A stretch of DNA of 64,000 nucleotides from an uncultured Anaerolineales bacterium (GTDB lineage: Bacteria; Chloroflexota; Anaerolineae; CG2-30-64-16). The position numbers and the translations under genes were made by a program. The stretch lies in the NCBI GenBank assembly GCA_964614645.1, contig CAZTMA010000001.1, positions 1,295 through 65,294 of the forward strand, written 5' to 3'. Numbering within the stretch: the stretch's first letter is position 1; each line of letters begins with the position of its first letter. Below the pieces are notes generated by a model that worked only from the letters and a program-made list of their open reading frames with translations, was not told the origin of the DNA and did no database searches. Below are positions 24,912-57,058 of the stretch, piece after piece.

Positions 24912-25193
24912 TTCCTGGGCCTTGTATACTGCCTCGTAATCGATCTGACTCTGTACCGTTCAGTGCACCTGTTGTCCAGGCACCTGTCATCCATGCCCGG
25001 GTGGACCGGCACGAACCCGTGTGCATGACTACACTCACTCGATGCTCCGGTTTGGTGTGCAACAAATAAAGATTGCTTCGTTTAGTCAGTTCGTGCCGGA
25101 AGGAGGAGCGTTCTTCGTCTCATCGGAGCATTTACGTACGTTCACTGCCACATTCTCACGACGGTGAAAGAACCCCAACGAGGAGGACTATCC

Positions 25194-27834: not shown

Positions 27835-29883
27835 ATGTTCAAGAAATCCCTATGGCCCATCTTGTTGATCCTGGCGCTGGTCCTGTCCGCCTGCGGCGGC
27901 GCGGCCACGCCGGCCCCGGCGCCAGCCCCGGCCGCAGAAGAACCGGCTGCGGAAGCGCCGGCCGCTGAGGAACCTGCGGCTGAAGAACCGGCTGCTGAGG
28001 AACCTGCGGCGGAAGAACCCGCAGCAGAAGAACCCGCGGCTGCCACTGGCATGTATAAGGAATCCCCTGTCCTGGCCGAGAAGGTTGCGGCCGGCGAATT
28101 GCCCCCTGTGGATGAGCGTCTGCCCGAAGAGCCGATGGTTGTCGGCCCTGGCACGTACCTGACCGAAGAGAATCTGCCCAACTGGGAGCCCGGCGTCTAC
28201 GGCGGCACGCTCCGCTCTGCGCATGGCGTCGCCAACTGGTCGCCCGACATCTTCGTGATGGCCGACGAGCCGCTGGTCATGGCCCCGAAGATCGGTGACC
28301 AAGGCATTGTCGGCGCGGTCGTCAAGGACTTCACCGTCGAGAACGACAACAAGGACTTCACCTTCGTGCTCCGCAAGGGCCTGAAGTGGTCCGACGGTGT
28401 GCCGGTCACGACCGAGGATGTCCGCTTCACCTATGAGCAGATCATGCTCAATGAGAAGATCAACCCCATCTTCGCGGCCAAGTTCCGCAACGGCTTCAAG
28501 GCCGACGAAGAACCCATGACGCTGGAGGTCGTGGACGACTACACCTTCAAGGTCCACTTCACGAAGCCGTACGGTGGGTTCCTGCGTGCGCTGGCGATCG
28601 AAGGCTGGGTGGGCTACACCGACCTGATCAACCCGTCGCACTACCTGTCGAAATGGCATCCGGACACGAATCCCGACCTGCTGACCAGCGATGAGTACAA
28701 GGAAGCGGCCGAAACGATCAGCGTGACCGACGAGTGGTGGCAGGTCTTCGCACAGAAGCGCTGCCAGAACTGGGACCTGACCAACCCGCGCTGCGTGAAC
28801 TACCCGAGCCTCTACGCCTGGGTCGGCGTGCCGTCCGACAATGCCAGCCTGCTCACCTTTGAGCGCAACCCGTACTACTTCAAGGTTGACACCGAAGGCC
28901 AGCAGCTCCCGTACGTCGACCGCATTGTTTCCCAGCAGGTCGAGAACGTGGAAATGGTCAACATGAAGGTGTTGGCCGGCGAGGTGGACTTCCTGCGCGA
29001 GAGCACGGCCCTGGTGAAGATCCCGCTCTACAAGGAGAACGAGGAGAAGGCGGGTTTCAACACGGTCCTGCTTGACATGCACGTGGACTCCACTGGTCTG
29101 CGCCTCAACCAGACCTTCGACGATCCGGACTGGCAGGCTGCCGCGCGGGACATCCGCTTCCGCCAGGCCGTCAGCCTCGCCATCAACCGGCAGGAACTGA
29201 TCGACAGCATCTACTACGGCTATGCCAGCTTCCCGCTCACTACGGTCGGCGAGGAGTTCTCGACGTTCGATGTCGACAAGGCTAATGCGCTGCTCGACGA
29301 GATGGGCCTGACCGAGAAGGACGCCGATGGGTTCCGCAAGTACCCGAGCGGCAAGACCGTTGAAATCTTGCTGGAACACGGCGCACACGCGCCTGACCAG
29401 GGCCCGGCGGCTGACCTGACTGCGCAGTACCTGAAAGCGATCGGCATCAAGGTCACCGTGAAGCAGCTAGACTCCAACCTGTTCAGCGAGCGGTGGAATG
29501 CCAACCAGGTTCAGGCCACGGTGCACTGGAGTCACGATGTGGGCTGGGCCGGCGATATCACGCTGGGCAACTACCATCGCGCCGGCCGGCTCTGGGAAGT
29601 CTGGCGGACGTCCAACGGCGCGGACGGCGAGGAGCCGCCGGATTGGGCTAAGGAAGCCATCCAGATCGACGCGGACCGCTGGTCGGCCGTCCCCGGCACC
29701 GACGAGTACAACGGGTTGGTTGATGCCGGCCTCAAGTGGACGCGCGACAACCTGCCCTACATCAACTACGTTGAGGGCGTGAAGTACCCGATGATCGTCA
29801 ACAAGAAGATGGGCAACGTGCCCCAGGGTGGCTACGCCATCGGTTACAACTTCACCGGCCCGCAGATGTTCTTCAAGCCGTAA
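27835..29883 (+). CDS. ABC transporter substrate-binding lipoprotein, family 5, paralogue 2
   Basis: Same architecture as SBP1 (LVLSACGG, AEEP repeats, WSDG.PVTTEDV). ATG 27835 after a GGAGAAAAAGGAG site. Confidence 0.85.
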   Translation: MFKKSLWPILLILALVLSACGGAATPAPAPAPAAEEPAAEAPAAEEPAAEEPAAEEPAAEEPAAEEPAAATGMYKESPVLAEKVAAGELPPVDERLPEEPMVVGPGTYLTEENLPNWEPGVYGGTLRSAHGVANWSPDIFVMADEPLVMAPKIGDQGIVGAVVKDFTVENDNKDFTFVLRKGLKWSDGVPVTTEDVRFTYEQIMLNEKINPIFAAKFRNGFKADEEPMTLEVVDDYTFKVHFTKPYGGFLRALAIEGWVGYTDLINPSHYLSKWHPDTNPDLLTSDEYKEAAETISVTDEWWQVFAQKRCQNWDLTNPRCVNYPSLYAWVGVPSDNASLLTFERNPYYFKVDTEGQQLPYVDRIVSQQVENVEMVNMKVLAGEVDFLRESTALVKIPLYKENEEKAGFNTVLLDMHVDSTGLRLNQTFDDPDWQAAARDIRFRQAVSLAINRQELIDSIYYGYASFPLTTVGEEFSTFDVDKANALLDEMGLTEKDADGFRKYPSGKTVEILLEHGAHAPDQGPAADLTAQYLKAIGIKVTVKQLDSNLFSERWNANQVQATVHWSHDVGWAGDITLGNYHRAGRLWEVWRTSNGADGEEPPDWAKEAIQIDADRWSAVPGTDEYNGLVDAGLKWTRDNLPYINYVEGVKYPMIVNKKMGNVPQGGYAIGYNFTGPQMFFKP

Positions 29884-42372: not shown

Positions 42373-43236
42373 ATGGCAGATTTCGGCTCCATCATCAAGC
42401 AGTTGAACGAGTTGAAGAAGGAGGTCGAGAAGGTCGGTCCGGACCTGGCTCCCAAGGTCGGAGAAATCAGTGATGCCCTTGGCCGATTGTCGGTCGAGGT
42501 TGGTGAAATGACGATCGAGCACCGCCCCCAGGTCGAGCCGCCCACGCGGCCGGGCCGGGAGATCGTCGGCGGTGCGGAAACGCAGGACTTCCCCGATTGC
42601 TGCGCGCTGGGGGACGACCGCGGGTACTACTGCTCAGGCACGCTCATCGCACCGAACGTAGTTGTGACGGCGGAGCACTGCCAGGGTCTGACGCGGGTCT
42701 ACCTGCGGGGCACCGACGTGACGAAGCCGGACGGCGCCGAGATTATCCCCATCGCGGAGGAATTCGTCCACCCCGAACTCGACCTGCGCGTCCTCGTGCT
42801 CAAGCACAACGCCGCTACCCCCCCGCGTACGGTCGGCCATGCAGCGCAGTTGGACGGCATCAAAGAGGTCACGCTTGTCGGCTTCGGCACGATCGACCCG
42901 GATGGCCGGTTCGGCTACGGCATCAAGCGCCGGGTGGACGTGCCCATCAAGACGTTCGACTGTGGGCAGATGGGCGAGGCGAAGCGGTTCGGTTGCCTGC
43001 CGGGCCGGGAGATTGTCGCCGGCCATGCAGGGCTGATGCTGGATTCGTGCAAGGGTGACAGCGGCGGGCCGCTCTACATCCAGCAGGATGGCGAGTTCTA
43101 CCTGCTGGGCGTGACCTCACGCGGCGCGCGGGGCGGGTTCCGCGAGTGCGGCGACGGCGGCATCTACGTGCGTGTGGACCTGTGCCTGGATTGGATTCGC
43201 GAAGTGACCGGCGCGGAAATCGCGCAGGCCGCGTGA
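42373..43236 (+). CDS. Cytoplasmic trypsin-like (S1) serine protease with a ~55-aa N-terminal coiled-coil extension (island gene A)
   Basis: IVGG...TAEHC (His)...GDSGGP (Ser). No signal peptide or TM segment. Confidence 0.8.
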   Translation: MADFGSIIKQLNELKKEVEKVGPDLAPKVGEISDALGRLSVEVGEMTIEHRPQVEPPTRPGREIVGGAETQDFPDCCALGDDRGYYCSGTLIAPNVVVTAEHCQGLTRVYLRGTDVTKPDGAEIIPIAEEFVHPELDLRVLVLKHNAATPPRTVGHAAQLDGIKEVTLVGFGTIDPDGRFGYGIKRRVDVPIKTFDCGQMGEAKRFGCLPGREIVAGHAGLMLDSCKGDSGGPLYIQQDGEFYLLGVTSRGARGGFRECGDGGIYVRVDLCLDWIREVTGAEIAQAA

Positions 43237-43260
43237 TCGCGGAGGGCAAGGAGGTCACCG

Positions 43261-44313
43261 ATGCCTAAGGAACTCAACCGCCAGGCCCACATGGTCCTGC
43301 GCGAGGCTCTGACCGGTCTCTATTGGGACGTGAAGGACATCAGGCTGGTCACGAAGGACGCAGGGCTCAATGTCGGACGTATCGGTTGGAACGAGGCGGC
43401 ACAGATCTCGTGGGAGAACGTCCTGAATGAGGCCAACAATCAAGGCTTGGTCAAGGTGCTGGCGCAGCGCGTGCTGAAGGATTACCCCAACGAAGAGCAG
43501 ATCAAGCTGGCTGCGGCAGGCGAACTGACCGCCATCCCAACCCCTTCGCTACCTGCGGAGGACCTGGCCCGCTTGAAGACGGGGGGCCGGCTCGAGAAGA
43601 TCATCGGTGCGGCGAGCACCTTCCGGCCGATCGGGTTCCTGGAGCGCGGCATGAAGGTCTCCCGTTCGGTGTGCCGTGTCGTTCTGCCGCTGAAGCCGGG
43701 CGAGGATAAGCCCGGCACCGGCAGCGGCTTCCTCATCGACGGCAACATTCTCATCACCAACCATCACGTGCTGCCCGATGCAGCGACGGCCCGCGCCGCG
43801 CATGTTGAATTCAACTATCAAACGGACGAATTGGGTGCGGAGCTGACGCCGACCCCCTATGACCTCGATCCGGACGCGCCCAATGGGTTCGCCACCTCGC
43901 TCCTGGATGAACAAGGTGGCGACGACTGGACCGCGGTCAAGGTCAAGGGCGATCCTGCGACGAAGTGGGGCACGCTGCGCATCTTCAAGCTGGAAGCAGA
44001 GGCCATGCCGAAGGAGAAGGATGAGGTCATCGTCATCCAGCATCCCGGCGGCGGACGCAAGCAGATTGCCCTGTCGCACAACACGGTTGTCGAGGCGAGT
44101 GAGCGGCGCGTCCAGTACCTGACCGACACCGCCGAAGGCTCATCAGGCTCCCCGGTGTTCGATGTGAAGTGGCGCGTGGTCGCGCTGCACCACGCTGGCG
44201 ACTGGCTGACCGGCGTGACGACCGGCAAACCGGTATATGCCAACCAGGGGATCCACATCAATCAGGTTATCGCCGGGTTGAGAAAAGCAGGAATGTTAAC
44301 GGACGGCTCTTGA
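43261..44313 (+). CDS. N-terminal ~70-aa helical adaptor (EAD-like, 'N-dom') fused to an active Trypsin_2-like serine protease (island gene B)
   Basis: ITNHHV (His), DDWTAV (Asp), GSSGSPV (Ser). N-dom L..LY......R.V.KDAGL...RI.....AQI.W..V..EA is shared with genes C, D and E. Confidence 0.75.
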   Translation: MPKELNRQAHMVLREALTGLYWDVKDIRLVTKDAGLNVGRIGWNEAAQISWENVLNEANNQGLVKVLAQRVLKDYPNEEQIKLAAAGELTAIPTPSLPAEDLARLKTGGRLEKIIGAASTFRPIGFLERGMKVSRSVCRVVLPLKPGEDKPGTGSGFLIDGNILITNHHVLPDAATARAAHVEFNYQTDELGAELTPTPYDLDPDAPNGFATSLLDEQGGDDWTAVKVKGDPATKWGTLRIFKLEAEAMPKEKDEVIVIQHPGGGRKQIALSHNTVVEASERRVQYLTDTAEGSSGSPVFDVKWRVVALHHAGDWLTGVTTGKPVYANQGIHINQVIAGLRKAGMLTDGS

Positions 44314-44325
44314 GGAGGTCGCATC

Positions 44326-44928
44326 ATGTCGTGGCACGCATCGCTCAGCCGGTTGGTCCAGGTCCTCGCGAATCTCTATGACACCGAAGCACAGGCTCGC
44401 ATTGTGGCGAAGGATGCCGGACTGGACCTGACGCGCATTCCTCTCAGTGGCAGCGCACAGATCTTCTGGGATGCCATCGTGACCGAAGCCCACAAACAGA
44501 ACTGCATGGAAGCGCTGGTGCAGCAGGCGCGGAGTGAGTTTCCCCTGAACGCAGAACTGCAGGCGACCTTGCAGGCAATTCAGCAGGACTATCTCGCCTG
44601 GCAGCAGGAGCCGGTCGTGGTTGAGCCAGCTGCCCCGCGCATCTACCAGCTCACGCCGCAGCAGAAACGGCCGCTTGTCGATGCGCTGCTCGGTTGCCCC
44701 ACGATGCAAGCCCGCCAGAGCCGGGACACTGTCGTAGAGGATCTGCGAGCAGATATCCGGAACAACGTCGAGCGGCACAACGCGCCGCGCCTGGATGTGA
44801 ACAGCATCGTCAGCACTGCGCTGGTCTACGCGGGCGGGCTCCAGGAACTGATCGAGGCCGTGCGCAACTACGAAGGCGACTCGCTGCCGATGATAGAAGT
44901 GGACCGGGTGATCGCTTCGTTCGGGTAA
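44326..44928 (+). CDS. Adaptor protein: N-dom + C-terminal ~90-aa helical 'X' domain (...GGL.ELIEAVR.YEGDSLPM..VDRVI..FG) (island gene C)
   Basis: By-eye alignment of its N-dom to gene B and of its X domain to genes D and E. Confidence 0.65.
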   Translation: MSWHASLSRLVQVLANLYDTEAQARIVAKDAGLDLTRIPLSGSAQIFWDAIVTEAHKQNCMEALVQQARSEFPLNAELQATLQAIQQDYLAWQQEPVVVEPAAPRIYQLTPQQKRPLVDALLGCPTMQARQSRDTVVEDLRADIRNNVERHNAPRLDVNSIVSTALVYAGGLQELIEAVRNYEGDSLPMIEVDRVIASFG

Positions 44929-44963
44929 GGCCATAGCGTCAGTTGCACAGGAGGGCCGGGGGG

Positions 44964-46640
44964 ATGGACGTCGCCAAACAGCGGGAAATCGTGGAGGCTC
45001 TCACTGCCTGTCCCAGCATGGGCAGCGAGCCGCGCCGCGACGCGGTCGTGGAAGAACTGCGCGAGAGCATCCGGTCTGCGATCGACCGCAGCGCGTCAGG
45101 CCGCGATGATGTGACGGCGATTGTCCGCGCCTGTCTCCAGTTCTTCAACGGGCTGGAGGAACTGGTGGCCGCGGTGCGCGTACGCGACGGGGACTCGCTT
45201 CCGATGCAGAACCTCGACCGGGTGATTCTGCGGGTGTTCGGCTTCGACCTGGCGGAGGAGGAGATGGGCCTGCGGTTGCTGACCGTGCTGGCGGGCATCC
45301 AGGCCGCACCGGACGACCTCCAGCGCACCTACCGGCGTCTCCTGCCGCCCGACGTGGCGCCCGCCCCGGATGCTCGCGGCCTGTTCAGCGTGTTGCCGCA
45401 TCTCTGGCAGATATCGCGTGAACTGGCGACGCAGAGCCGCACCGGCAACGTACCGATCCTCGACTTCGTCGAACAACTGGCGCGCGATGCGCCGGGCAGC
45501 GTCGCGGGCCAGTTGCGCGGCTGGGCAACCGAGGTGACATCCCTGGTGCTCTCGACCGGACCCGCGGGACGGCCGGCGGACATGGTTATGCGCGGCACCG
45601 GAACCGGCGACGGCGGGGTCAGCGCGCTGGACCCGCGGCTGGCCATCCTCGCCAGCGTGCTCGCGGCCCTCTATCCTTCTATAGAGGCGTCGGGTGAGCT
45701 GGTGGCCGCAGCGCGCCTGAATCCGGTCGGCATCGAGTTTCGCGAACTGCCCTCGCTCAACTGGCACAACATCCTGACGGCTGCCGCGCGGCGCGACCGC
45801 GTTAGCCACCTGGTCGAAGCTGCGCTGGCAGACCAGCCAGACAACCCCTGGCTGAAGGTGGCGCTGGGCCAGCAGCAGTCGGCTTATGAGCCCGAGGTGC
45901 GGCCTTCCGATGAGCCCACAGCGGTAGCGCAACCATCGCCGGCCGCGGGAAGCCCGCTGCCGGCCTGGCCGCAGCACGTCAGCTTTCTGGAAGAAGCCCT
46001 GAATCGCGCCCAGGCGGTGCTGCTCATCCAGTTACCAAATGGGGGCAGTGGTACCGGCTTCCTCGTACAAGGTGATCTCCTGATTACCGGTGGATTCAAC
46101 ATCCGCAATGTTGCCGAGGCACGCGAGGCTGTCGTCCGCTGCAATTTCCAGCGTACGATGGGAGAACTGATGACGACTTCTGAGGAGCTCCGCCTGTTGC
46201 CGGATCAAGGCTTTGCAACCACAGAGGATCGGCTATGGACTGCGGTGCGGGTTGCCAGGAAGCCGACTGAACGCTACGGCTATCTGCACCTTGAGCCGGC
46301 CAGCCCCCAGGTCAAGGATCGGGTCAGCCTGATCCATCATACCGGAGGCGGGCCGAAGCAACTGGAACTTCTAAATCGGATTGTAATTGATGTGGACAAA
46401 TCCAGTCTCCAGTATGACACGGAGAACCCCCTCCACAGCATCAAGCAGCCCGGGTCCGGGGGGGCGCCGATCTTCGATGTGAATTGGCGGGTCGTCGGGG
46501 TGCATCGTGCGCACGGCACGCTGAAGGCCCTTTCCGGTGGGGAGCGCCGTTGCAGCGAAGGGGTGCACATCAATGTCATCATCGAGGGGTTGAAGGCCGC
46601 CGGCCTGTATCTGGGCAAGGGGGAGGGTGAGACACCATGA
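44964..46640 (+). CDS. X domain + linker + N-dom + degenerate (His- and Ser-less) trypsin-like domain, a pseudoprotease (island gene D)
   Basis: Aligned to gene B, ITNHHV becomes ITGGFN and GSSGSPV becomes GSGGAPI. The X domain sits at the N-terminus (EELVAAVRVRDGDSLPMQNLDRVI). Confidence 0.65.
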   Translation: MDVAKQREIVEALTACPSMGSEPRRDAVVEELRESIRSAIDRSASGRDDVTAIVRACLQFFNGLEELVAAVRVRDGDSLPMQNLDRVILRVFGFDLAEEEMGLRLLTVLAGIQAAPDDLQRTYRRLLPPDVAPAPDARGLFSVLPHLWQISRELATQSRTGNVPILDFVEQLARDAPGSVAGQLRGWATEVTSLVLSTGPAGRPADMVMRGTGTGDGGVSALDPRLAILASVLAALYPSIEASGELVAAARLNPVGIEFRELPSLNWHNILTAAARRDRVSHLVEAALADQPDNPWLKVALGQQQSAYEPEVRPSDEPTAVAQPSPAAGSPLPAWPQHVSFLEEALNRAQAVLLIQLPNGGSGTGFLVQGDLLITGGFNIRNVAEAREAVVRCNFQRTMGELMTTSEELRLLPDQGFATTEDRLWTAVRVARKPTERYGYLHLEPASPQVKDRVSLIHHTGGGPKQLELLNRIVIDVDKSSLQYDTENPLHSIKQPGSGGAPIFDVNWRVVGVHRAHGTLKALSGGERRCSEGVHINVIIEGLKAAGLYLGKGEGETP

Positions 46641-47797
46641 AGTTTGAGGATATCGTGCGCCGGCTGGCGGATTTGTTGGCCGAGTTGTTCCCCGCAGCGG
46701 CCGCTGGGCCGCGCCTTGCCGAGGCAGCCGGCATCGAGTTGGAAGGCAGCCTGCTCGACGGGGGCCAGGATCGGGTAGCCTGGTGGCGCGCCGCGCTCAG
46801 CACAGTGACGGAGGAACAGGTGGGCAAGCTGCTGGCGCTGGCCCAGCAGGAGCGTGCCGGTTCCTTTGCCCTGTTGATCCTGCAGAGCGAATTCGAGCGG
46901 TGGTGGCGCGAACGCCACCAGGTCTACCGCGGGGCCAAATCCGGAGCCCGACCTGAACCGGTGTCCCCACCGGCACCCATTTCGAAGGACGTGGAGCCGC
47001 CCGAAACCACCGGGCCATCCGCTCCGCAATCCTCTTTCTCCGCTGGGGTTGCGGCAGTGACTACCCTGCGGCTGGACGCTGCCGTGCCGGAGCGCGTCGT
47101 AGTAGGCCGGCCCTTCACGATTGCCGTGGCCGTCCGCCAACTGGCCTCCCCGCGGCTGAGCGAGGCGGATATGCCTGTGATGCGCTCCAGCGATGCGCAG
47201 GTGTTCTGGCCCGCGGGGCAGCCGTTCGTGCGGCTGCGCCTCGAGGTCTCGTCGGCATACTGCACGGTGAACAATGAGTCATCGCGCGCCTTCAGGCTCT
47301 ACCAGGCCCACGACTCGCCCACATTCTACTTCTCCCTGACGCCCACCGTTACCGGCCAGATCGATGTCCATATCGAGCTGTACCAGGAAGATGACCTCAT
47401 CGGCAGCACGCGCATCAACACCACGGCGGATGAGCAGGTGCAGCGGCTGGCCGGCACGGTCGAGATCGTGATGCACAGCCAGACCGTCGAGGCTGCGCGG
47501 ATGACGGCCGCGGCGAAGATGAAATTGGCGAAGACGCTGCTGCGCTGCCCGACCGTCCTCGACCGGGAGAATCGGGATGCGATCGTCACCGATCTGCCCG
47601 AGGAGATTCGGCTTGGAGTGAGCCGCAGCGATTCAGCCCTGCTCGACGTCCAGAACATCATCGGGCTGGCTTTGAACTATGAGGGAGGGCTGAACGCCTT
47701 CATCGAGGGGGTGCGCCTGTTCGAAGGCAATTCGCTCCCCATGGCGAAGGTGGATCGCGTCCTGGGCGAGATTGGTTGGGTCGGTCTGGCGGACTGA
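46637..47797 (+). CDS. N-dom + beta-rich middle domain + C-terminal X domain (island gene E)
   Basis: 4-nt overlap with gene D. C-terminus ...GGLNAFIEGVRLFEGNSLPMAKVDRVLGEIG. Confidence 0.65.
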   Translation: MKFEDIVRRLADLLAELFPAAAAGPRLAEAAGIELEGSLLDGGQDRVAWWRAALSTVTEEQVGKLLALAQQERAGSFALLILQSEFERWWRERHQVYRGAKSGARPEPVSPPAPISKDVEPPETTGPSAPQSSFSAGVAAVTTLRLDAAVPERVVVGRPFTIAVAVRQLASPRLSEADMPVMRSSDAQVFWPAGQPFVRLRLEVSSAYCTVNNESSRAFRLYQAHDSPTFYFSLTPTVTGQIDVHIELYQEDDLIGSTRINTTADEQVQRLAGTVEIVMHSQTVEAARMTAAAKMKLAKTLLRCPTVLDRENRDAIVTDLPEEIRLGVSRSDSALLDVQNIIGLALNYEGGLNAFIEGVRLFEGNSLPMAKVDRVLGEIGWVGLAD

Positions 47798-49165: not shown

Positions 49166-49831
49166 CTAGGATACCCTGGCGAGCCGGTCGAGATTGGCGT
49201 TGGAACCGATGACCACAAGCAGGTCGTCCGCCTGCATGATTACATCTGCAGACGGCGAGATCAGGAATTCCTCGTTGCGCTTGATCGCCAGCAATGTGAT
49301 GGCGAACCGGCCGCGCAGGTCTACCTGGCGCAGGCTCCGGCCTACGAAGGAACTGGGCGTGCGGAACTCGGTGATCGTGTGGTCCGCATCCAGGGTGAGG
49401 TGATCGAGGAGCAAGGGCATGGTCAGGCTGTAGGCGAGCCGCTGGCCGGCCTCATATTCGGGCAGAACTACCCGATCCGCGCCGACCTTGAGCAGGATGG
49501 TTTTCTGTCGCTCGCTGAGAGCCTTGCACACGATCCGGCGCACCCCCAGGCTTTTCAAAGCGACGGTCGCCATGAGATTACTCTCGAAGTCCGCGCCGAT
49601 GGCCACCACGACCGTGTCAAACGACGCGATATCGATCGCCCGCAGGGCGTCCTCGTCGCTCGCATCCAGGGCCACGGTCTGTGTCAGCTCGTCCGCGAAC
49701 TGCTGCACCAGGGCGCGGTCGCGATCGATGCCGATGACCGTGTATCCGCGTGCGACCAGTGTCAGCGCGAGGCTGCTGCCGAAACGGCCCAGCCCGATGA
49801 CGGCAAATTCAGGTTGGTTGTTCTTCGCCAT
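49166..49831 (-). CDS. trkA: TrkA/KtrA potassium uptake regulatory subunit (RCK N/C domains)
   Basis: AVIGLGRFGSSLA NAD-binding motif. Confidence 0.9.
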   Translation of the reverse strand: MAKNNQPEFAVIGLGRFGSSLALTLVARGYTVIGIDRDRALVQQFADELTQTVALDASDEDALRAIDIASFDTVVVAIGADFESNLMATVALKSLGVRRIVCKALSERQKTILLKVGADRVVLPEYEAGQRLAYSLTMPLLLDHLTLDADHTITEFRTPSSFVGRSLRQVDLRGRFAITLLAIKRNEEFLISPSADVIMQADDLLVVIGSNANLDRLARVS

Positions 49832-50008
49832 AGGTGTGGGTTCCTCTAGCGGTCAAACTGGGGTGCTGCACACAGTCTACTCTTGTCCCGCGTCTTGCGC
49901 AAGCGGCAAAAGTCGCCAATCGTATTTCCGGCCCCTGTCCCTGGTAAGCTTTTGTGCTAGCTTTGTCAACAGGCTTGCGCGCCATGGCCGCGGCATCGCG
50001 CGCCGGAA

Positions 50009-50037
50009 TTGTCAACATTCGACAACGGCTATACAAT
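50009..50037 (+). promoter_or_regulatory. Promoter of the cooC-like/carH operon, flanked by TTGTCAACA repeats
   Basis: TTGTCA, 17-nt spacer, TACAAT. TTTGTCAACA at 49963 and ATTGTCAACA/TTCGACAACG at 50008-50027. Confidence 0.4.
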
Positions 50038-50093
50038 GACTCTTGCAACAGACATGCCTGACGATTACGACTGACCAGGATAAGGACAACATC

Positions 50094-50876
50094 ATGCCAA
50101 AAATCGCCATTACCGGAAAAGGCGGCGTCGGGAAGACGACGTTGACCGCGCTGCTCTCGTACGTTTATGCCCAGCAGGGCCACGATGTGATTGCCATTGA
50201 CGCGGACCCCGCGGGCAACCTGGGGATGGCCTTCGGGCTCAGTGCGGCGCTGGATGCTGAGCTCAAGCCCATCGCGGAGATGGAAGCCTTGATCTACGAG
50301 CGCACCGGCGCCCAGCCCGGCACGGTCGGCGGCTGGTTCAAGCTCAACCCTAAGGTGGACGACATCCCTGACAATTTCAGCATCCACCACCGGGGCGTGC
50401 GGCTCCTGCGCCTGGGCACGGTGCGCGGGGGCGGGACGGGTTGCCTGTGTCCTGAAAATGCGCTGCTCAAAGCCCTGGTCACGCACCTGTTGTTGCGCAA
50501 GAACCAGACGCTTATCCTGGATATGGAAGCGGGCGTGGAGCACCTGGGCCGGGGCACAGCCGGCTCCGTCGATGCATTCGTGATTGTAGTGGAGCCGGGC
50601 CTGCGCAGCCTGGGCACTGCGGAGCAGATCCGCGGGCTGGCTGCAGAAATCGGCATCCATCAGGTGTACCTGGTCGCAAACAAGACCCGTCATGCGGACG
50701 ATGAGGCCTTTATCCGGGCCCATGCGGATGGGATGCCCGTGTTGGGCAGCCTGCCGTATACCGCCGATGCAGTGGCCGCGGATCAGGGAGGGCTGGCCGT
50801 TTTCGACCAGGCGCCTGAGCTGCTGGCGGCCGCAGAGCGGATCGCGGATGCCCTGGCAGAACTTGCAGTGACGTGA
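50094..50876 (+). CDS. CooC-family P-loop ATPase (nickel-insertion/MinD-ParA class) with a CxC motif
   Basis: IAITGKGGVGKTT, IDADP, and GTVRGGGTGCLCPENALLKAL closely resembling the CooC metal-site region. Confidence 0.8.
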   Translation: MPKIAITGKGGVGKTTLTALLSYVYAQQGHDVIAIDADPAGNLGMAFGLSAALDAELKPIAEMEALIYERTGAQPGTVGGWFKLNPKVDDIPDNFSIHHRGVRLLRLGTVRGGGTGCLCPENALLKALVTHLLLRKNQTLILDMEAGVEHLGRGTAGSVDAFVIVVEPGLRSLGTAEQIRGLAAEIGIHQVYLVANKTRHADDEAFIRAHADGMPVLGSLPYTADAVAADQGGLAVFDQAPELLAAAERIADALAELAVT

Positions 50877-50882
50877 GGCGAG

Positions 50883-51851
50883 GTGGCTATGACTGAGGAA
50901 GCGCGCTTGAGTGCCTACGACGATGCACCCGTCTACACCATCAAGACGGTCGTGCAGGAGACGGGCATCCCGCCGGCCACGTTGCGGGCCTGGGAACGGC
51001 GTTACGGGGTATTGTCGCCCGGCCGCAGCGACGGCGGCTATCGGCTCTATTCGGAGCGCGATATCGCCATCCTGCGCTGGCTGAAAACGCAGGTGGATAC
51101 AGGCGTCTCCATCAGCCGGGCTGTGGCGCTCCTGGAACTGCGGCACCAGGCCGGGGAGCAGCCGGAACGCAAGACCGCCCGATCCGGGCCGGATCAGGCG
51201 CTACTGGCCCCGGCGGGAGCGCGCAGCGCCGATGCCATCGGTGATGAACTGGTGGATGCTCTGTTAGCATTCCAGGAAGCGCGCGTGGAAACCCTCCTGA
51301 ACGAGGCCTTCGCGCTGTATCCGGTGGAAGCGGTGGCCGAGGACATCATCACGCCGGTCCTCGTTGAAATCGGTGAGATGTGGCACCGAGGCGAGGCGAG
51401 CGTCGTGCAGGAGCACTTCGCCACGGCAATCCTGCGCCGCCGGCTGACCGCCCTGTTCCACGCCTACGCGCAGCCCGCCGCGGGGCCGCTGGCCATGACC
51501 GGCTCCGGCCCGTCGGAATGGCATGATGTGGGCATTTTGCTCGTCAGTCTGGTGCTGCGCCGGATGGGTTGGCGGGTCATCTATCTGGGCCAGAATGTGC
51601 CTGCAGACCACTTGGGGCAGGAGATCGCCCGGCTGCGGCCCGCGCTGGTTTGCCTCTCCGCCAGTACCCGCGAAAGCGGAGACGCGCTGGCAGATGTATA
51701 CGAGTTAGTGCGCGCTCTGCCGGAGCCCCGGCCGCGCCTGGTCTTCGGCGGCCGCGCGTTCAATATTCACCCGGAACTGCGGAGCCGCTTTGCCGGCACC
51801 TACATCGCAGGCAGCGCTCGCGAACTCGCAAACGAATTAAGCCTCGGCTGA
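50883..51851 (+). CDS. carH: MerR-family regulator with C-terminal cobalamin-binding domain (CarH/LitR-like light sensor), paralogue 1
   Basis: MerR HTH (YTIKTVVQETGIPPATLRAWERRYG), W-x9-EH motif (EMWHRGEASVVQEHF), B12 Rossmann motif (EWHDVG). Confidence 0.8.
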   Translation: MAMTEEARLSAYDDAPVYTIKTVVQETGIPPATLRAWERRYGVLSPGRSDGGYRLYSERDIAILRWLKTQVDTGVSISRAVALLELRHQAGEQPERKTARSGPDQALLAPAGARSADAIGDELVDALLAFQEARVETLLNEAFALYPVEAVAEDIITPVLVEIGEMWHRGEASVVQEHFATAILRRRLTALFHAYAQPAAGPLAMTGSGPSEWHDVGILLVSLVLRRMGWRVIYLGQNVPADHLGQEIARLRPALVCLSASTRESGDALADVYELVRALPEPRPRLVFGGRAFNIHPELRSRFAGTYIAGSARELANELSLG

Positions 51852-51862
51852 TCTTACCCCTT

Positions 51863-51890
51863 GTAGAGACGTTCCGCGGAACGTCTCTAC
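51863..51890. terminator. Perfect 28-bp palindrome after carH-1 (terminator or operator)
   Basis: gtagagacgttccgc|ggaacgtctctac. Confidence 0.45.
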
Positions 51891-51900
51891 AATCCACCAA

Positions 51901-51948
51901 ACAAACTATAAACAAACTATTGACATCTGTCTGCTTCTGTGCTATAGT
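51901..51948 (+). promoter_or_regulatory. carH-2 promoter with 11-bp direct repeats overlapping -35 (candidate CarH operator)
   Basis: ACAAACTATA AACAAACTAT TGACAT; TTGACA, 17-nt spacer, TATAGT. Confidence 0.5.
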
Positions 51949-52019
51949 GCTGAGGATTGTGCAGGTAATCTACCGTGCGGAGATGTTCCGCCGGAATGTC
52001 CCTGCAAGCGTAGCCAGGA

Positions 52020-52988
52020 GTGAGCATCAACGTGAACGAGCAGCGAGGCGAGACAGATACGCAGCCCGTGTATAACATCAAGGCGGTGGTGGAGGCCACG
52101 GGTCTGCCCGCGGCCACCTTGCGCGCCTGGGAACGGCGCTATGGCGCCCTTGTGCCCGGCCGCACCGACAGCGGCTACCGGCTCTATTCGGCTCAGGACA
52201 TCAAGGTGCTGCGCTGGCTCAAGGCGCGCGTGGAAGAAGGTCTCACGATTAGCCAGGCGATTGCCCTCCACCGCCATCGCAGGCTGGGCGAGCCCGGCGC
52301 AGCGGCCGACGAGCCTCGCGCTGAGAGCCGCCAGGGCCTGACCGGCGCGCGGGATATGCTGCTGGCTGCGCTGATAGATTTTGAGGAGGCGCAGGCTGAC
52401 CGGCTTCTGGAAGAGGCCTTTGCCGTGTACGGCCTCGAAGCGGTGACCGAGCATGTCATCGGCCCCACGATGGTGCAGATCGGTGACCGTTGGCATCGCG
52501 GGGAAGTGACCACCGCGGTCGAACATTTCGCGAGCAACTATCTGCGCCGCAAGATAGACGCCATCATCAACGCCGCGCCGCGCAGCGCCGCCGGCCCCCT
52601 GGTTGTCTTGGGATGTGCGCCGAACGATTGGCATGAGCTTGGGCTGCTCCTCATCTACCTGTTACTGCGCCGCCGCGGCCTGCGCACCCTTTACCTGGGC
52701 CAGAATGTGCCGGTGCTGCAGTTTGTCGAAGAAATGGAACGTCTGCGCCCCGCCATCGTCGTTATTGCTGCTACCACTGCTGAGACCGCTGGCGGCGTTG
52801 GGGAGCTGGCTGCAGCCCTACAGAGCCTGCCCGAACCGCGGCCGGTGTTTGCCTTTGGAGGTCGGGCCTTTAACGTTCAGCCTGAATTGCGCAGGGAGAT
52901 TCCGGGCATCTTTCTGGGCGAGAACGCACGTTCCGCCGTCGAGTACCTCGTAGCCTTACTCGATGACATTAAAACAGTTAGTCCGTAG
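52020..52988 (+). CDS. carH: MerR-family B12-binding regulator (CarH/LitR-like), paralogue 2
   Basis: YNIKAVVEATGLPAATLRAWERRYG, DRWHRGEVTTAVEHF, NDWHELG. Confidence 0.8.
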   Translation: MSINVNEQRGETDTQPVYNIKAVVEATGLPAATLRAWERRYGALVPGRTDSGYRLYSAQDIKVLRWLKARVEEGLTISQAIALHRHRRLGEPGAAADEPRAESRQGLTGARDMLLAALIDFEEAQADRLLEEAFAVYGLEAVTEHVIGPTMVQIGDRWHRGEVTTAVEHFASNYLRRKIDAIINAAPRSAAGPLVVLGCAPNDWHELGLLLIYLLLRRRGLRTLYLGQNVPVLQFVEEMERLRPAIVVIAATTAETAGGVGELAAALQSLPEPRPVFAFGGRAFNVQPELRREIPGIFLGENARSAVEYLVALLDDIKTVSP

Positions 52989-53051
52989 CCTGCCTTACAG
53001 CAAAGTGTGCGTCTACCTAAAGGCAAGATTAAGAGTTAATTAACAGCTTTG

Positions 53052-53088
53052 ACAAACTATTGACATATCGCTGATTTTCACTTATACT
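53052..53088 (+). promoter_or_regulatory. crp/fnr promoter carrying the same ACAAACTATTGACAT motif
   Basis: TTTGACAAACTATTGACAT; TTGACA, 17-nt spacer, TATACT. Confidence 0.5.
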
Positions 53089-53156
53089 CTTGAGAGTAAT
53101 TGGAGGAAGGCTGACAGATCAGTGTTGGATACGAAGTGCAAAGGGGAGGTGTTCTG

Positions 53157-53822
53157 ATGGTGCATCGAGGGAAACAACGATCGGTACCGGAGATTCTGAT
53201 TGAACTCCGCGAAGATGATCCCGAATTCAAGCAAGCAATCACGGCACAGTCAATTCGCTCGGGCCAGACCCTCGCTGAACCGGATGTGCTGGGTCGTAAT
53301 CTCTTTACCCTGATGAAGGGTCGGGTGCAGTTGATTCGTGAAGGGCCCAACGGGCGGCGGCTGGCCATTGCCACGTTGGGGCCGGGCTCGATGTTCGGGG
53401 AAGGCGCGCTGTTGGGCGCCGTAGATCCGTGTGTGAAGGCCGTGGCCTTGACGGATTGTGTGGTCTGGATGGTTCCACAGCCCCAGGCACAAACACTGGC
53501 GCTGCGCTACCCGGTCCTGAGCTGGGGCCTGCTGCAAACCGTGGGGCAGCGTCTCGCCCAGGTCGAAAACCGGATGGAAGAAGTCGCGTACAAGCGGCTG
53601 CCGGAACGGCTGGCCGGTCTGCTGCTGGAGCTGGCGAACGGCGGCAAGGCGATCCGCGGGACGAGCCACCAGGCGCTTGCGGACATGTTGGGCACGTATC
53701 GTGAGACAATCAGCGCCATCCTGCGCGGGTTCAAGGATGATGGCCTGGTTGAACTGGGTTATCGCAAGATCGAGTTGCGGGATTTGCGCGGCCTGCGCAT
53801 GGCGGCCGGCAGCATCGAATAA
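53157..53822 (+). CDS. Crp/Fnr family transcriptional regulator
   Basis: cNMP-binding beta-roll (GPGSMFGEGALL) and C-terminal HTH (HQALADMLGTYRETISAILRGF). Confidence 0.85.
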   Translation: MVHRGKQRSVPEILIELREDDPEFKQAITAQSIRSGQTLAEPDVLGRNLFTLMKGRVQLIREGPNGRRLAIATLGPGSMFGEGALLGAVDPCVKAVALTDCVVWMVPQPQAQTLALRYPVLSWGLLQTVGQRLAQVENRMEEVAYKRLPERLAGLLLELANGGKAIRGTSHQALADMLGTYRETISAILRGFKDDGLVELGYRKIELRDLRGLRMAAGSIE

Positions 53823-53845
53823 GAGTAACAGTTTCAGGTTGTCTA

Positions 53846-53873
53846 CGGGAGCAGTGTACTGGCGCTGCTCCCG
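53846..53873 (+). terminator. Hairpin after crp
   Basis: cgggagcag-tgtactggcg-ctgctcccg. Confidence 0.45.
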
Positions 53874-53924
53874 TATTGTTTAAGCCCTCGAAACAGTGTA
53901 TGATACGAATCGTGAACGCAAAAG

Positions 53925-54647
53925 ATGGAGCGTGCCATGCTCACAGGTAAGGTGGCCTGGGTCACCGGGGCAACGGGCGGTGTAGGGCCAGCAGTCGTCA
54001 AGGATCTGGCGGATGCGGGCGCAATCGTACTGGCGAGCGCGCGGGATGCGGCTGCGGTTGCGGCGTTGGCCGCGAAGCACGGTATCCCTGCAGACCGGTT
54101 CCTGGCACTGCCCGTGGACCTGACGGACGAGTCTGCCGTTCAGACGGCTGTCGCGGCAGGCGTGGCCCGGTTTGGCCGGATCGACATCCTGGCGGCTGTT
54201 GCGGGCACATGGCGCGGCGGTGCAACCGTGGCCGAGACCGAACCGGAAACCCTCGATCTCCTGTGGCGCGTGAATGTGCAGACGGCCTTCAACGCCTGTC
54301 GGGCCGTCCTACCCCATATGACCTCACAGGGGTGGGGTCGCATCGTCACCTTTGGCGCCCGTGCAGCCACGACCGGCCAGGCCAAGAGCGGCGCCTATGC
54401 GGCGAGCAAGGCGGCCGTGCTGGCGCTGACCCAGTCCATTGCGGCTGAGGTGCGCGCCGACGGTGTTACGGCGAATACACTGCTCATGAGCACCGTGGAC
54501 ACGCCGGATAACCGGGCCGCAATGCCTGAGGCGGACTGGAGCAAGTGGGTACAGCCGGAACAAATTGCTGCAGCAGTGCGTTTCCTGTGCAGCGATGCCG
54601 CTGCTGCGCTCAGCGGCGCGGCTGTTCCGTTGTACGGGCGCGCATGA
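53925..54647 (+). CDS. SDR family oxidoreductase
   Basis: VTGATGGVGPAV, YAASKAAV. Confidence 0.85.
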   Translation: MERAMLTGKVAWVTGATGGVGPAVVKDLADAGAIVLASARDAAAVAALAAKHGIPADRFLALPVDLTDESAVQTAVAAGVARFGRIDILAAVAGTWRGGATVAETEPETLDLLWRVNVQTAFNACRAVLPHMTSQGWGRIVTFGARAATTGQAKSGAYAASKAAVLALTQSIAAEVRADGVTANTLLMSTVDTPDNRAAMPEADWSKWVQPEQIAAAVRFLCSDAAAALSGAAVPLYGRA

Positions 54648-54705
54648 CGGGTGGACAGCCACGCAGGTGGAGCGAGGTAATCGGAGGGTAGCCTGAGGTA
54701 GCCTT

Positions 54706-55395
54706 ATGGACGAAGCAACCGAAACAACCGAACTGGCCCTGTTTCCACTCAACACAGTGCTGTTTCCCGGCCAGGTGTTGCCGCTGCACATCTTCGAAGA
54801 TCGCTATCGTTTGATGGTTCGGCGGTGTCTGGCCGATGAGTTGCCGTTCGGCGTCGTGCTCATCAAGCAGGGCGAGGAAGTGGGCATGCCTGCGGAACCG
54901 TATGGCGTCGGCACACTGGCGCGCATCATCGAGAGCACGCATCTGCCCAATGGGACAATGAATATCATCACGGTCGGGGTCGAACGCTTCCGCATACGCC
55001 GGTTCATTCACGACCAGCCCTACCTGCGCGGTGAGGTGGAAACGCTGCCCCTGGACGAGCAGGGCGACGCGGGGGCCTTGGAAGGACTGGCAGACAGCGT
55101 GCGCGAGCGGGTGGCACTTTACATCAAGCTGATTGCGGAGGCTGCCGGGTTGGAAATCAAGGTTGACCAGATGCCTGACTTGCCCGCACAGATCGGCTAT
55201 CTCGCGGCCATAACCATGCAGATCGACAACCGCGAAAAGCAAGAGTTGCTGGCCAGCCGGTCGCTGACTGTGATTCTGAGCCAAGCGCGCACGCTGCTGA
55301 ATCGTGAGAATGCCCTGCTGACCTGGATGGTCGGCAGCAAAGCCTGGCCGGAGCAAGTGCAGTTTGGACCGAGCGGCACACTCTTGCCCAACTGA
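54706..55395 (+). CDS. Stand-alone LON N-terminal (substrate-binding) domain protein
   Basis: LALFPLNTVLFPGQVLPLHIFEDRYR signature. Confidence 0.8.
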   Translation: MDEATETTELALFPLNTVLFPGQVLPLHIFEDRYRLMVRRCLADELPFGVVLIKQGEEVGMPAEPYGVGTLARIIESTHLPNGTMNIITVGVERFRIRRFIHDQPYLRGEVETLPLDEQGDAGALEGLADSVRERVALYIKLIAEAAGLEIKVDQMPDLPAQIGYLAAITMQIDNREKQELLASRSLTVILSQARTLLNRENALLTWMVGSKAWPEQVQFGPSGTLLPN

Positions 55396-55412
55396 CCGAT
55401 TGTCTCACGCAT

Positions 55413-55441
55413 TTGACACGGACCCCCTGACATGGTAAAAT
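55413..55441 (+). promoter_or_regulatory. cspA promoter
   Basis: TTGACA, 17-nt spacer, TAAAAT. A long 5' UTR (about 185 nt) follows. Confidence 0.5.
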
Positions 55442-55492
55442 CCTATTCGTTGTGATCGTTACAACAATGGCCAGGGAGTAGGACAGTCACCA

Positions 55493-55534
55493 GCCACCGG
55501 TGCTGCAGTCTAGCCCGGTGGTTTTTGTGTTTTG
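55493..55534 (+). promoter_or_regulatory. Terminator-like hairpin plus U-tract inside the csp 5' UTR (candidate attenuator)
   Basis: ccaccggtgctgcagtctagcccggtgg followed by tttttgtgttttg. Confidence 0.45.
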
Positions 55535-55627
55535 TCGGCTGTGCGGGCAGCGAACTGGCTGTACAGCAACTCCAGTGCCCGGCCAGGCGTGGACGATCAC
55601 AGGACTATTAGCAGGAGGCACTACCAA

Positions 55628-55834
55628 ATGGAGAGCACGGGTGTAGTTAAGTGGTTTAGCCGGAGCAAGGGTTATGGATTCATTTCGCCGGATGGCGGAG
55701 ACAAGGACGTATTCGTTCACTACTCCAACATCCTCGGCGAAGGCTTTCGCAACCTGGACGCTGGAGAGCGGGTGAGCTTTGTCATCGAAGATACGCCCAA
55801 AGGCCCGCAGGCAGTTAATGTAACCCCGGTCTAA
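55628..55834 (+). CDS. cspA: Cold-shock protein (CspA family)
   Basis: [15 protein letters not shown]...VFVHYS, 68 aa. Confidence 0.9.
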
Positions 55835-55866
55835 GAGGTTACTGAGCGCCACATCCGGCCCCCGGC

Positions 55867-55898
55867 TCTCCGCTGGGGGCTTCTGTTTTAAGTCGACC
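55867..55898 (+). terminator. Intrinsic terminator after csp
   Basis: gcccccgg-ctctccg-ctgggggc followed by ttctgtttt. Confidence 0.55.
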
Positions 55899-55918
55899 AT
55901 CTAAGGTTTGGCCCAACG

Positions 55919-57058
55919 TTGTGGCAACCCTGTAAACAGAATCACTTGCCAATGCCCCTGAACCGGTGTAGAATGCCGGACAACTGGTCAGGAGCAGGAT
56001 TGTCGGTGATTCGTCCGTTCGGTCTGAACGATATCGGGTTGGTGCGCCGGCTACAACGTGACGGAATGGCGCTGGCAATGGAGCCTATGCTGGCCCACCC
56101 GCACCAACCATTGTGGACTGCGCTGACCGCGCCGTGGCCATGGGCGGGAGCGGGCGTGGCCTCTTTCGTGTTGGATGAGAGGGTCGATGGCCGGCGGCTG
56201 ATGGGCTTCGTGCAGTTGATGAAACGGGCCGCGCGACCTGAGGCCGATCTGCTGCATCTCGCACCGGTGGTGACCGCGGTGGATGACACGGCGGAAGCTG
56301 CACCGTCAGATCAGGCACCGGCCGCTTGCAGCGGGGACGGCGCAGTCATCTGGAGCAAGTTGCTGGCTTACTGCCAGCGGGCGGCGGCCGGTCACGGGCT
56401 CCAGCGTATCTATGCCAGCACGCCGGACGGGTGTGCCGAGCAGCAATGCTTGCGTGCAGCGACCTTCAGCCCGTACACGCGGGAGACCATCTATCGGCTG
56501 GCATCGCTGCCTCCGGCTGGCGGGGCACTGGTGGGGTTTCGGCCGCAGACGCCGCAAGATAGTTGGGCGTTGCAGCGGCTCTACACCCGCAATACGCCGC
56601 TGCTGGTGCAGCAGGCCGAAGGCGCCCTGACCGGCGAGGTCGGCTCGCCGCCGCTATCCTGGTGGGAACCGGATAGCTGGCGCGGCACCGTGTGGGAGCC
56701 GGCAGGTGAAGTGCGCGCCGCCGTGCAGGTGCACATCGGGCGGGCGGGCCACTGGCTGCGGCTGTGGGGGGCGAATGAGATTTCGCCGCGTGAATTGCGG
56801 TCACTCGTCGAACAGGGTCTCCGCCAGATTGACCTGCTGCGGCGGTCGCGGCGCACCGTGCCGGTGTATACGACCGTCCGCGAGTATGAGAGCGGACTGC
56901 GCGGCGCCCTGACCGGGTTCGGCTTTGCACCCTATCTGGAACGGGTGCGTTTCGTCAAACACACTGTTGCAATGGTCCGGCATCCGGCAGCAGTGTCTGC
57001 GGTGGGCCGTGAGGTGCGCCAGGAAATGCCAGTGCGCAGTCAGGCGGGTCGCCCATAG
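55919..57058 (+). CDS. Hypothetical protein, possibly a two-lobed acyl-CoA N-acyltransferase fold
   Basis: ORF codon usage matches its neighbours. No confident motifs. Exact start uncertain. Confidence 0.45.
   Translation: MWQPCKQNHLPMPLNRCRMPDNWSGAGLSVIRPFGLNDIGLVRRLQRDGMALAMEPMLAHPHQPLWTALTAPWPWAGAGVASFVLDERVDGRRLMGFVQLMKRAARPEADLLHLAPVVTAVDDTAEAAPSDQAPAACSGDGAVIWSKLLAYCQRAAAGHGLQRIYASTPDGCAEQQCLRAATFSPYTRETIYRLASLPPAGGALVGFRPQTPQDSWALQRLYTRNTPLLVQQAEGALTGEVGSPPLSWWEPDSWRGTVWEPAGEVRAAVQVHIGRAGHWLRLWGANEISPRELRSLVEQGLRQIDLLRRSRRTVPVYTTVREYESGLRGALTGFGFAPYLERVRFVKHTVAMVRHPAAVSAVGREVRQEMPVRSQAGRP

Follow-up and report, generated by a model that had tools for sequence, protein, structure and literature searches.

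Two CarH/LitR-type B12-MerR regulators, a Crp-family gene and cooC behind predicted tandem-repeat operators in an Anaerolineae genome

The locus described here lies in a 64-kb stretch of DNA (the window; 128 kb over both strands, GC content 64.7%) from an uncultured Anaerolineales bacterium, and the nearest relatives of the region are Anaerolineae (Chloroflexota) metagenome-assembled genomes. Past the divergent genes trkA/trkH, the plus strand encodes, in this order, a CooC-family P-loop ATPase (cooC), two regulators of the CarH/LitR type that join a MerR-type DNA-binding domain to a B12-binding domain (carH1 and carH2), a Crp/Fnr-family regulator (crp), a classical short-chain dehydrogenase/reductase (sdr), a Lon-N-domain protein (lonN) and a cold-shock protein (csp) (Table 1). 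The original prediction, made from the DNA letters alone, had placed two paralogous MerR-B12 genes at 50883 and 52020. Both are borne out by open reading frames on the plus strand (50883-51851 and 52020-52988), for which an ATG at 50889 (carH1) and a GTG at 52032 (carH2) are the likelier starts. A database entry of 318 amino acids is 100% identical to CarH2.

Only 12 nt separate the stop codon of cooC from the start of carH1, GAGG boxes lie just before the carH1 ATG, and a promoter scan predicted no promoter between the two genes. The hairpin that follows carH1 has a minimum free energy of -22.3 kcal/mol (z = -8.5). Hairpins are also found at the equivalent position in orthologous loci, with T-runs behind them in three (L002, L004, L005), and the hairpin probably marks a terminator or the 3' end of the cooC-carH1 transcript. 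Each of carH2 and crp has a promoter of its own. An Rfam search of 49700-56000 gave no cobalamin riboswitch or other leader RNA above threshold.

Characterised photoreceptors that use B12 come from Myxococcus, Thermus, Bacillus and Streptomyces. CarH1 and CarH2, which are 49% identical, both match the Pfam families MerR_1, B12-binding_2 and B12-binding above the curated cut-offs; these correspond to the MerR winged-helix DNA-binding domain (PF13411, together with PF00376), the four-helix bundle (PF02607) and the Rossmann-type B12-binding domain (PF02310). Alignment of CarH2 with the Thermus thermophilus LitR/CarH structures 3WHP and 5C8D (E = 1.4e-36 and 1.7e-36) extends from the DNA-binding domain through the B12 domain. 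As predicted, both regulators contain W-x9-EH, found as EMWHRGEASVVQEH and DRWHRGEVTTAVEH, as well as [DE]-x-H-x2-G, found as SEWHDVG in CarH1 and NDWHELG in CarH2. The prediction had named the absence of the B12-binding His as a possible flaw, but this residue is invariant in an alignment of 22 sequences including both paralogues. The invariant columns comprise W158, H159, E168, H169, W204 and H205 (CarH2 numbering), the glycine of (D/E)xHxxG is kept in at least 90% of the rows, and the cobalt-ligand His of CarH2 is aligned with the T. thermophilus CarH segment GERHEIG. The published photoreceptor signature consists of GxxW, EH, GxxH and GxxxP, with W131, E141, H142 and H177 as key residues of the T. 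thermophilus protein (PMC11796333). Three of these four elements are matched: GxxW is present as GEMW/GDRW and lies, with EH, in invariant columns, and GQNVP fits GxxxP.

The promoters of carH2 and crp do share a motif, as originally proposed: the 15-mer ACAAACTATTGACAT occurs exactly twice in the 64 kb, at 51912 and 53052. If 3 or fewer mismatches are tolerated, the matches number 3 against 0.26 expected, a count that was not reached in any shuffle. Both copies end in the -35 hexamer TTGACA, followed by a 17-nt spacer and TATAGT (carH2) or TATACT (crp), 11 of 12 positions being consensus. The earlier description as a perfect -35/-10 pair is thus correct for the -35 element and slightly overstated for the whole, because the -10 boxes match at only 5 of 6 positions. 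Direct repeats with an 11-bp period were also recovered, T-N2-ACA recurring at 51909/51920 and at 53049/53060. The experimentally derived repeat of CarH operators is 5'-nnnnTnnACAn-3', and binding extends to operators in which pseudo-repeats accompany one or two good repeats (PMC9304148). The prediction referred to the binding of CarH-type tetramers to tandem 11-bp repeats across the -35 element; the sites at carH2 and crp match nnnnTnnACAn, and their last repeat encloses the -35, an arrangement also found in T. thermophilus (PMC9304148).

A third site had been overlooked. The strict pattern T..ACA-N5-T..ACA has 3 occurrences over both strands of the window against 0.5 expected, all of them at promoters of this locus, and the third, at 50019, belongs to the proximal promoter of cooC-carH1. 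All 3 predicted sigma-70-type promoters of the locus therefore carry the repeat element. The proposal that carH1 is expressed together with cooC agrees with the operon structure, but because this promoter also bears a tandem repeat pair, carH1 is unlikely to be expressed in a simply constitutive way. When the window was scanned with a weight matrix derived from 19 operator sites of orthologous loci, nothing above 8 bits appeared besides the two known operators; hence no extra targets are indicated within these 64 kb. The predicted regulon holds to the extent of three promoters, all of which serve the regulator genes of a single locus.

Table 1. Predicted genes, promoters, operators and RNA elements of the locus, in window coordinates
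Feature	Position	Strand	Remarks
Distal promoter-like element upstream of cooC	49918-49963	+	AATCGTA box, then extended -10 TGTGCTAGCTT
Proximal cooC-carH1 promoter	50009-50037	+	-35 TTGTCA 50009-50014, 17-nt spacer, -10 TACAAT 50032-50037; 10/12
cooC-carH1 repeats ACATTCGACAA, CGGCTATACAA	50015-50025, 50026-50036	+	Cover spacer and -10
cooC, CooC-family P-loop ATPase, 260 aa	50094-50876	+	First gene of cooC-carH1 operon
carH1, CarH/LitR-type MerR-B12 regulator, 320 aa	50889-51851	+	Alternative GTG start at 50883
Perfect 14-bp-stem hairpin	51861-51892	+	Directly 3' of carH1; no T-run in the window
carH2 promoter/operator	51894-51948	+	Pseudo-repeat, two repeats, -35, TG-extended -10
carH2 pseudo-repeat CCACCAAACAA	51894-51904	+	
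carH2 repeat ACTATAAACAA	51905-51915	+	Fits nnnnTnnACAn
carH2 repeat ACTATTGACAT	51916-51926	+	Fits nnnnTnnACAn; holds -35 TTGACA 51920-51925
carH2 TG-extended -10 TATAGT	51943-51948	+	
carH2, second CarH/LitR-type MerR-B12 regulator, 318 aa	52032-52988	+	Start at 52020 in the open reading frame list
crp promoter/operator	53028-53088	+	Conserved boxes, two repeats, -35, -10
crp upstream conserved box ATTAAGAG	53028-53035	+	
crp upstream TTAAC	53040-53044	+	
crp repeat AGCTTTGACAA	53045-53055	+	Fits nnnnTnnACAn
crp repeat ACTATTGACAT	53056-53066	+	Fits nnnnTnnACAn; holds -35 TTGACA 53060-53065
crp -10 TATACT	53083-53088	+	
crp, Crp/Fnr-family regulator, 221 aa	53157-53822	+	Ribosome-binding site GGGGAGG upstream
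Intrinsic terminator 3' of crp	53844-53875	+	14-pair stem, then T-rich tail (terminator scan; strong)

The conservation of these sites was followed in 80 Anaerolineae/Chloroflexota carH loci, obtained by a profile search with one genome per species. Eight of them (L001-L008) keep the order cooC-carH1-carH2-crp-(sdr)-lonN-csp, with CarH2 proteins 59-86% identical. The carH1-carH2 spacer has the consensus AAAc.aTAaACAAACTaTTGACAaa...TGTGCTATA (TgTGCTATA at the -10 end) over eight loci in which the promoter was called, and the same repeats are present in the spacer of L003. Alignment of 14 upstream regions, one of them mis-anchored, gave aTtaa.ag.tT.gACAAAc..TTGACa as the consensus of the carH2-crp spacer. 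In the orthologous loci the operators at both promoters are conserved, while the surrounding intergenic DNA and the promoter spacers have diverged. The proximal repeats of cooC are kept fully or partly in L001, L002, L006, L018, L020 and L025. Across the 80 loci the tandem pattern amounts to 86 sites against 10.4 expected (about 8-fold), located mostly within about 130 bp upstream of the start of carH or of a divergently transcribed neighbour. The genes other than carH that lie behind such repeats are often NmrA-like/NAD(P)-binding or DUF1731 epimerase-family genes, and include a CrtI-like desaturase (L067), a phytoene synthase (L078), an MFS transporter (L031) and a heliorhodopsin (L080). The operator idea is upheld on four independent counts: by its fit to the published repeat, by conservation in eight orthologous loci, by the enrichment at carH loci and by its rarity among -35 contexts. 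An exact scan of metagenome contigs for the 14-mer ACAAACTATTGACA returned at least 120 matches, mostly low-GC, unrelated and attributable to chance, and among the matches listed only L185 adjoins a carH gene; given their chance character, they afford no view of further regulon members.

Two loci deserve separate mention. In L080, two overlapping tandem T-N2-ACA pairs (1542-1591) stand directly upstream of the heliorhodopsin gene (PF18761, E = 6e-100; gene from 1638), beside carH (2500-3378), and to judge from these motifs the rhodopsin may be under a B12-photoreceptor operator. In L015 (7069-7349), which is without carH2, a carH2-type promoter/operator (TAAACAAACTATTGACAAA...TGTGCTATACT) is found 280 nt upstream of crp, as if carH2 had been deleted and its promoter kept.

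Upstream of the proximal cooC promoter lies a more distal promoter-like element. In 18 aligned cooC upstream regions it takes the form (G/A)AATGTA-N~28-TGTGnTAnnnT and is without clear CarH repeats; the pattern precedes cooC in 14 loci and occurs almost nowhere else among 83 loci. It resembles a promoter of the extended -10 kind, preceded by an unexplained box. A minus-strand CarH operator was considered and rejected, the ACA-N8-ACA spacing of the window and some relatives being not conserved; a class II CRP site is unsupported, as the conserved part amounts to a TGTA half-site only. By way of speculation, the element could supply basal CarH1 in the dark. Another conserved box, cATTAAGA(G/T)TT, is found upstream of crp (53028-53044 in the window; about 12775-12800 in L082), where it is common to window-type loci and to loci of the Candidatus Amarolinea type without CarH repeats. 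In the window, TTAAC lies 11 bp downstream of it, and the box may be a separate regulatory site.

The Crp-family protein matches cNMP_binding (PF00027) and HTH_Crp_2 (PF13545) above the Pfam cut-offs and can be aligned with T. thermophilus CRP (4EV0, E = 6e-19), SdrP (2ZCW) and LdrP/TTHB099 (3B02, E = 1.4e-11). At the position of the Arg-Ser pair that contacts the cAMP phosphate in T. thermophilus CRP, the alignment has Pro-Cys. Crp is 85-96% identical across the orthologous loci and thereby more conserved than either CarH protein. The CarH-type operator on its -35 element places crp, at the level of sequence only, under the control of an adjacent CarH.

The first gene of the operon, cooC, encodes a true CooC homologue. 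The protein aligns over residues 3-224 with CooC1 of Carboxydothermus hydrogenoformans (PDB 3KJE, E = 1.7e-44), with which it shares fold family, length, the deviant MinD-type Walker A motif (GKGGVGKTT) and the metal-binding C-x-C (aligned; GTGCLCPEN); its Pfam matches are CbiA/ArsA_ATPase. The name CbiA was considered as a hint of B12 amidation and discarded, since there is no glutaminase domain and the match reflects a generic P-loop domain only. CooC1 matures the nickel site of carbon monoxide dehydrogenase and is encoded with it, whereas the gene studied here stands in an operon with a B12 photoreceptor-type regulator. No carbon monoxide dehydrogenase gene was found in the annotated part of the window, from 34 kb to its end, nor in seven CooC-anchored loci, where the partner is carH: in 6 of these 7, carH follows cooC directly or after one membrane-protein gene, in otherwise unrelated neighbourhoods. 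CooC is 78-96% identical among the best 120 database hits and is more conserved than CarH. The arrangements found are cooC-carH1-crp, cooC-X-carH1-crp, cooC-X-carH1 by FemAB, cooC-carH1 by recA and, once, cooC-crp; furthermore, L209 has cooC-carH1-carH2-crp with carH2 called in two pieces. The number of carH copies between cooC and crp thus ranges from 0 to 2, and this variety indicates that cooC-carH1 is a mobile module of two, sometimes three, genes.

In three of the loci (L205, 6782-7552; L207, 4779-5549; L210, 4785-5558) the gene between cooC and carH1, which has no equivalent in the window, encodes a polytopic membrane protein of 256 amino acids. No Pfam family or PDB structure matches this protein; a GDGLADVVGRRWG motif in it is reminiscent of the family of CTP-dependent polyprenol/phytol kinases. 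In L081 (1850-5385) and L205 (1039-4709), though not in the window, cooC is preceded at a distance of a few genes by a transporter set of the ECF type (CbiQ, ABC ATPases, ECF_trnsprt), which may have to do with the uptake of cobalt or corrinoids.

We consider it likely that the locus constitutes a light switch of the CarH/LitR type, dependent on adenosylcobalamin (AdoCbl) and arranged in a short cascade. CarH1, CarH2 or both would bind AdoCbl in the dark, oligomerise and occupy the tandem 11-bp repeats, occluding the -35 element at carH2 and crp and the spacer and -10 element at the proximal cooC-carH1 promoter. As the repeats overlap promoter elements, RNA polymerase would then be blocked. 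Near-UV to green light would cleave the Co-C bond, upon which the oligomer would fall apart and the carH2, crp and cooC-carH1 promoters would open. One output would be more repressor, providing negative feedback and reset; the other would be the Crp-family factor. Through this factor the signal would reach genes in other parts of the genome, the role that LdrP has under LitR in T. thermophilus. Because Crp is without the cAMP-contacting Arg-Ser, its activity would depend on how much of it is present and not on a ligand. Moreover, since regulator genes are the only direct targets predicted in this locus, the physiological output would have to go through Crp, and the output genes presumably lie elsewhere. 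AdoCbl binding, light-driven release and repression are what we infer from knowledge of the family; binding of CarH1 and CarH2 to these particular sites is predicted from the repeats, and activation by Crp, like any role of CooC, is proposed by analogy.

Several observations weigh against this cascade. The glycine of GxxH, the fourth signature element, is Ser in CarH1 (SEWH) and Asn in CarH2 (NDWH); the position varies within the clade, as many close homologues carry G or D there. The best NCBIfam family for both proteins is CarH (NF052513), but their scores of 170 bits (CarH1) and 162 bits (CarH2) are far below its equivalog cut-off of 400 bits, so that this model ranks them as members of the family and not as equivalogs. 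In each operator, conservation extends to only two well-formed repeats; the third unit at carH2 is a pseudo-repeat confined to the window and L001. Loci of the Amarolinea type, arranged carH-crtI-like-x-crp, have a crp promoter without such repeats, and the loss-of-operator control discussed below is a single locus (L206). The 64-kb window contains no photoprotective target gene and no further operator. Crp reaches 48 bits against a cut-off of 300 for LdrP (NF052518), roughly what it scores with the models for FixK and for CRPs in general, and its similarity to LdrP does not exceed that to other CRPs; as it is not an LdrP orthologue, the resemblance to the LitR-LdrP pair is one of wiring and not of descent. 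Finally, close relatives come from dark habitats, for example an anaerobic membrane bioreactor, and this is as compatible with a sensor of B12 as with one of light.

An unlikely alternative is that only one paralogue serves these operators, the other, most likely CarH1, having diverged, for example to control or work with the CooC ATPase. The original prediction spoke of tandem paralogues, which holds for their adjacency but not for a recent tandem duplication: in a neighbour-joining tree (distance-based, without support values) the CarH1 proteins, which are always linked to cooC, form one clade and the CarH2 proteins another, sister to the Amarolinea-type carH; CarH2 groups with the carH of carH-crtI-crp loci. 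By this tree carH1 and carH2 are old lineages, which suits a division of tasks, as do the co-occurrence of CarH1 with cooC in varied neighbourhoods (FemAB, RecA, crp) and the existence of loci with carH1 only and of one with neither. However, both proteins keep all the B12 and photochemistry residues, and their recognition-helix segment ATLRAWERRYG is identical. Furthermore, loci with carH1 only still have the crp-promoter repeats (L016 and L205; L204 partly), so that CarH1 alone seems sufficient. Because of the identical helix and these retained repeats, CarH1 and CarH2 probably recognise the same operators.

The main rival reading, though rather improbable, is that CarH1 and CarH2 act as dark-state corrinoid sensors, repressing when AdoCbl or another corrinoid is available and releasing when it is scarce, with CooC and Crp in a circuit of cofactor or metal status. 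Repression needs B12 in the characterised CarH systems (PMC9304148), the closest relative, L001, is the one from the anaerobic membrane bioreactor, neither carotenoid nor photolyase genes occur in the window, carH1 shares its transcript with a gene of a metallochaperone family, and the CbiQ/ABC ECF-type transporter is encoded just upstream in L081 and L205. The retained residues are nevertheless those of the photoreceptor signature (Trp, Glu-His, and His beside Trp), and relatives put the same operator before crtI-like, crtB and heliorhodopsin genes. AdoCbl bound in the CarH fold is intrinsically photolabile, so that corrinoid and light roles are compatible.

The shared 15-mer might also be promoter context only, that is, a strong -35 with an A-rich upstream element, or what remains of a promoter that was copied. 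Most of the last repeat consists of the -35 TTGACA and most of the second cooC repeat of the -10 TACAAT, and the A/T-rich upstream sequence could act as an UP element. Even so, this explanation is very improbable. A generic -35 context, which the original prediction had feared, was not found: of the 5 promoters in the window that fit TTGAC[AG]-N16-18-TAnnnT, only those of carH2 and crp carry the motif. The upstream repeat, which lies outside the -35, is kept at a fixed 11-bp phase in orthologous loci whose spacers vary freely, and the pattern tracks carH across distant Anaerolineae, divergent promoters included. Where carH is missing, in the cooC-crp-sdr-lonN-csp locus L206 (5780-7062), the crp and proximal cooC promoters keep their -35/-10 elements and have lost the T-N2-ACA repeats, which points the same way, though it is a single case.

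CRP-family dimers bind inverted repeats, whereas the sites here are direct repeats 11 bp apart. Binding of the repeats by Crp (autoregulation) or by another factor instead of CarH is hardly tenable: the crp gene adjoins the sites and the T. thermophilus LdrP half-site TGTA...TACA also includes ACA (PMC7662524), but the LdrP-type pattern TGT(A/G)-N8-(T/C)ACA has a single match in the window (113-128; 1.6 expected) and none in or near the locus, and the same repeats stand at carH promoters in loci without crp nearby.

The closest parallel to the proposed cascade is found in T. thermophilus, where litR represses TT_P0055 (LdrP), a positive regulator of the light-induced crtB cluster, and TTHB099 binds DNA without cAMP (PMC7662524). 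As with LitR (CarH; TTHB100/TT_P0056) and LdrP (TTHB099/TT_P0055), the gene of an AdoCbl-type MerR repressor lies beside that of a CRP/FNR-family regulator predicted to be under its control, the operator is a tandem array of 11-bp nnnnTnnACAn repeats with the -35 inside one of them, and the cAMP independence of LdrP may have a counterpart in the missing Arg-Ser contact of Crp. In contrast to Thermus, the window has two B12-competent paralogues instead of one; there is a separate promoter and operator for each regulator gene, with the third operator on cooC-carH1; no crtB or photolyase gene is adjacent; and two well-formed repeats are conserved per site instead of three. In Myxococcus xanthus, CarA and CarH are likewise two paralogous MerR-type regulators that use the same operator region over the -35 (PMC9304148). 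However, CarA is B12-independent and requires the antirepressor CarS, and the myxobacterial genes lie inside a carotenoid operon, whereas both paralogues described here keep the B12 and photoreceptor signatures and lie outside such an operon. For Bacillus megaterium CarH/LitR, repeat and pseudo-repeat operators can overlap the -10 as well as the -35 (PMC9304148), as at the proximal cooC promoter, but its operators have four repeats and carotenoid genes are direct targets.

Three further observations concern other parts of the window. The leader and coding region of the cold-shock gene (55446-55884) resemble the cspA thermoregulator RF01766 (38.5 bits, E = 2e-7), although the match falls short of the gathering score, 78. 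Four consecutive genes at 42373-47797 join trypsin-like protease domains with EAD1, EAD2 and VMAP-M0 domains, which looks like a vWA-MoxR-associated or effector-associated-domain conflict-system cluster. Two adjacent open reading frames of about 700 codons each (25164-27260 and 27781-29883) have near-identical codon-position GC profiles and are possibly tandem paralogues.

The most unusual feature of the locus is the conserved cooC-carH1 operon, a linkage that a specialist might find surprising and for which no literature connecting CooC with B12-MerR regulators was found. It asks whether an ATPase of a metallochaperone family services a cobalamin photoreceptor. That CooC serves the CarH1 lineage as a dedicated partner, for instance in ATP-driven corrinoid loading or exchange or in re-arming after photolysis, is a doubtful proposal that rests on genomic grounds only. 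If true, the B12 photoreceptor would be resettable through CooC, and CarH1 would be a standing repressor with CarH2 as a light-induced feedback copy, possibly in mixed tetramers. Should the response be to corrinoid rather than to light, the locus would represent a protein-based counterpart of a B12 riboswitch that controls a global-type regulator.

The kind of system, CarH/LitR with a CRP-family relay, is known; the example presented here is uncharacterised, comes from a new phylum, and combines two B12-competent paralogues with three operators. No CarH/LitR paper on Chloroflexi was among the top-ranked literature hits. The two natural CarH variants and their cognate operators may also be of use in the building of optogenetic tools. 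Anaerolineae, which occur in large numbers in wastewater, sediments and mats, are generally taken to be non-phototrophic. For these bacteria, the locus provides a testable wiring diagram of three operators, two receptors and one relay regulator.

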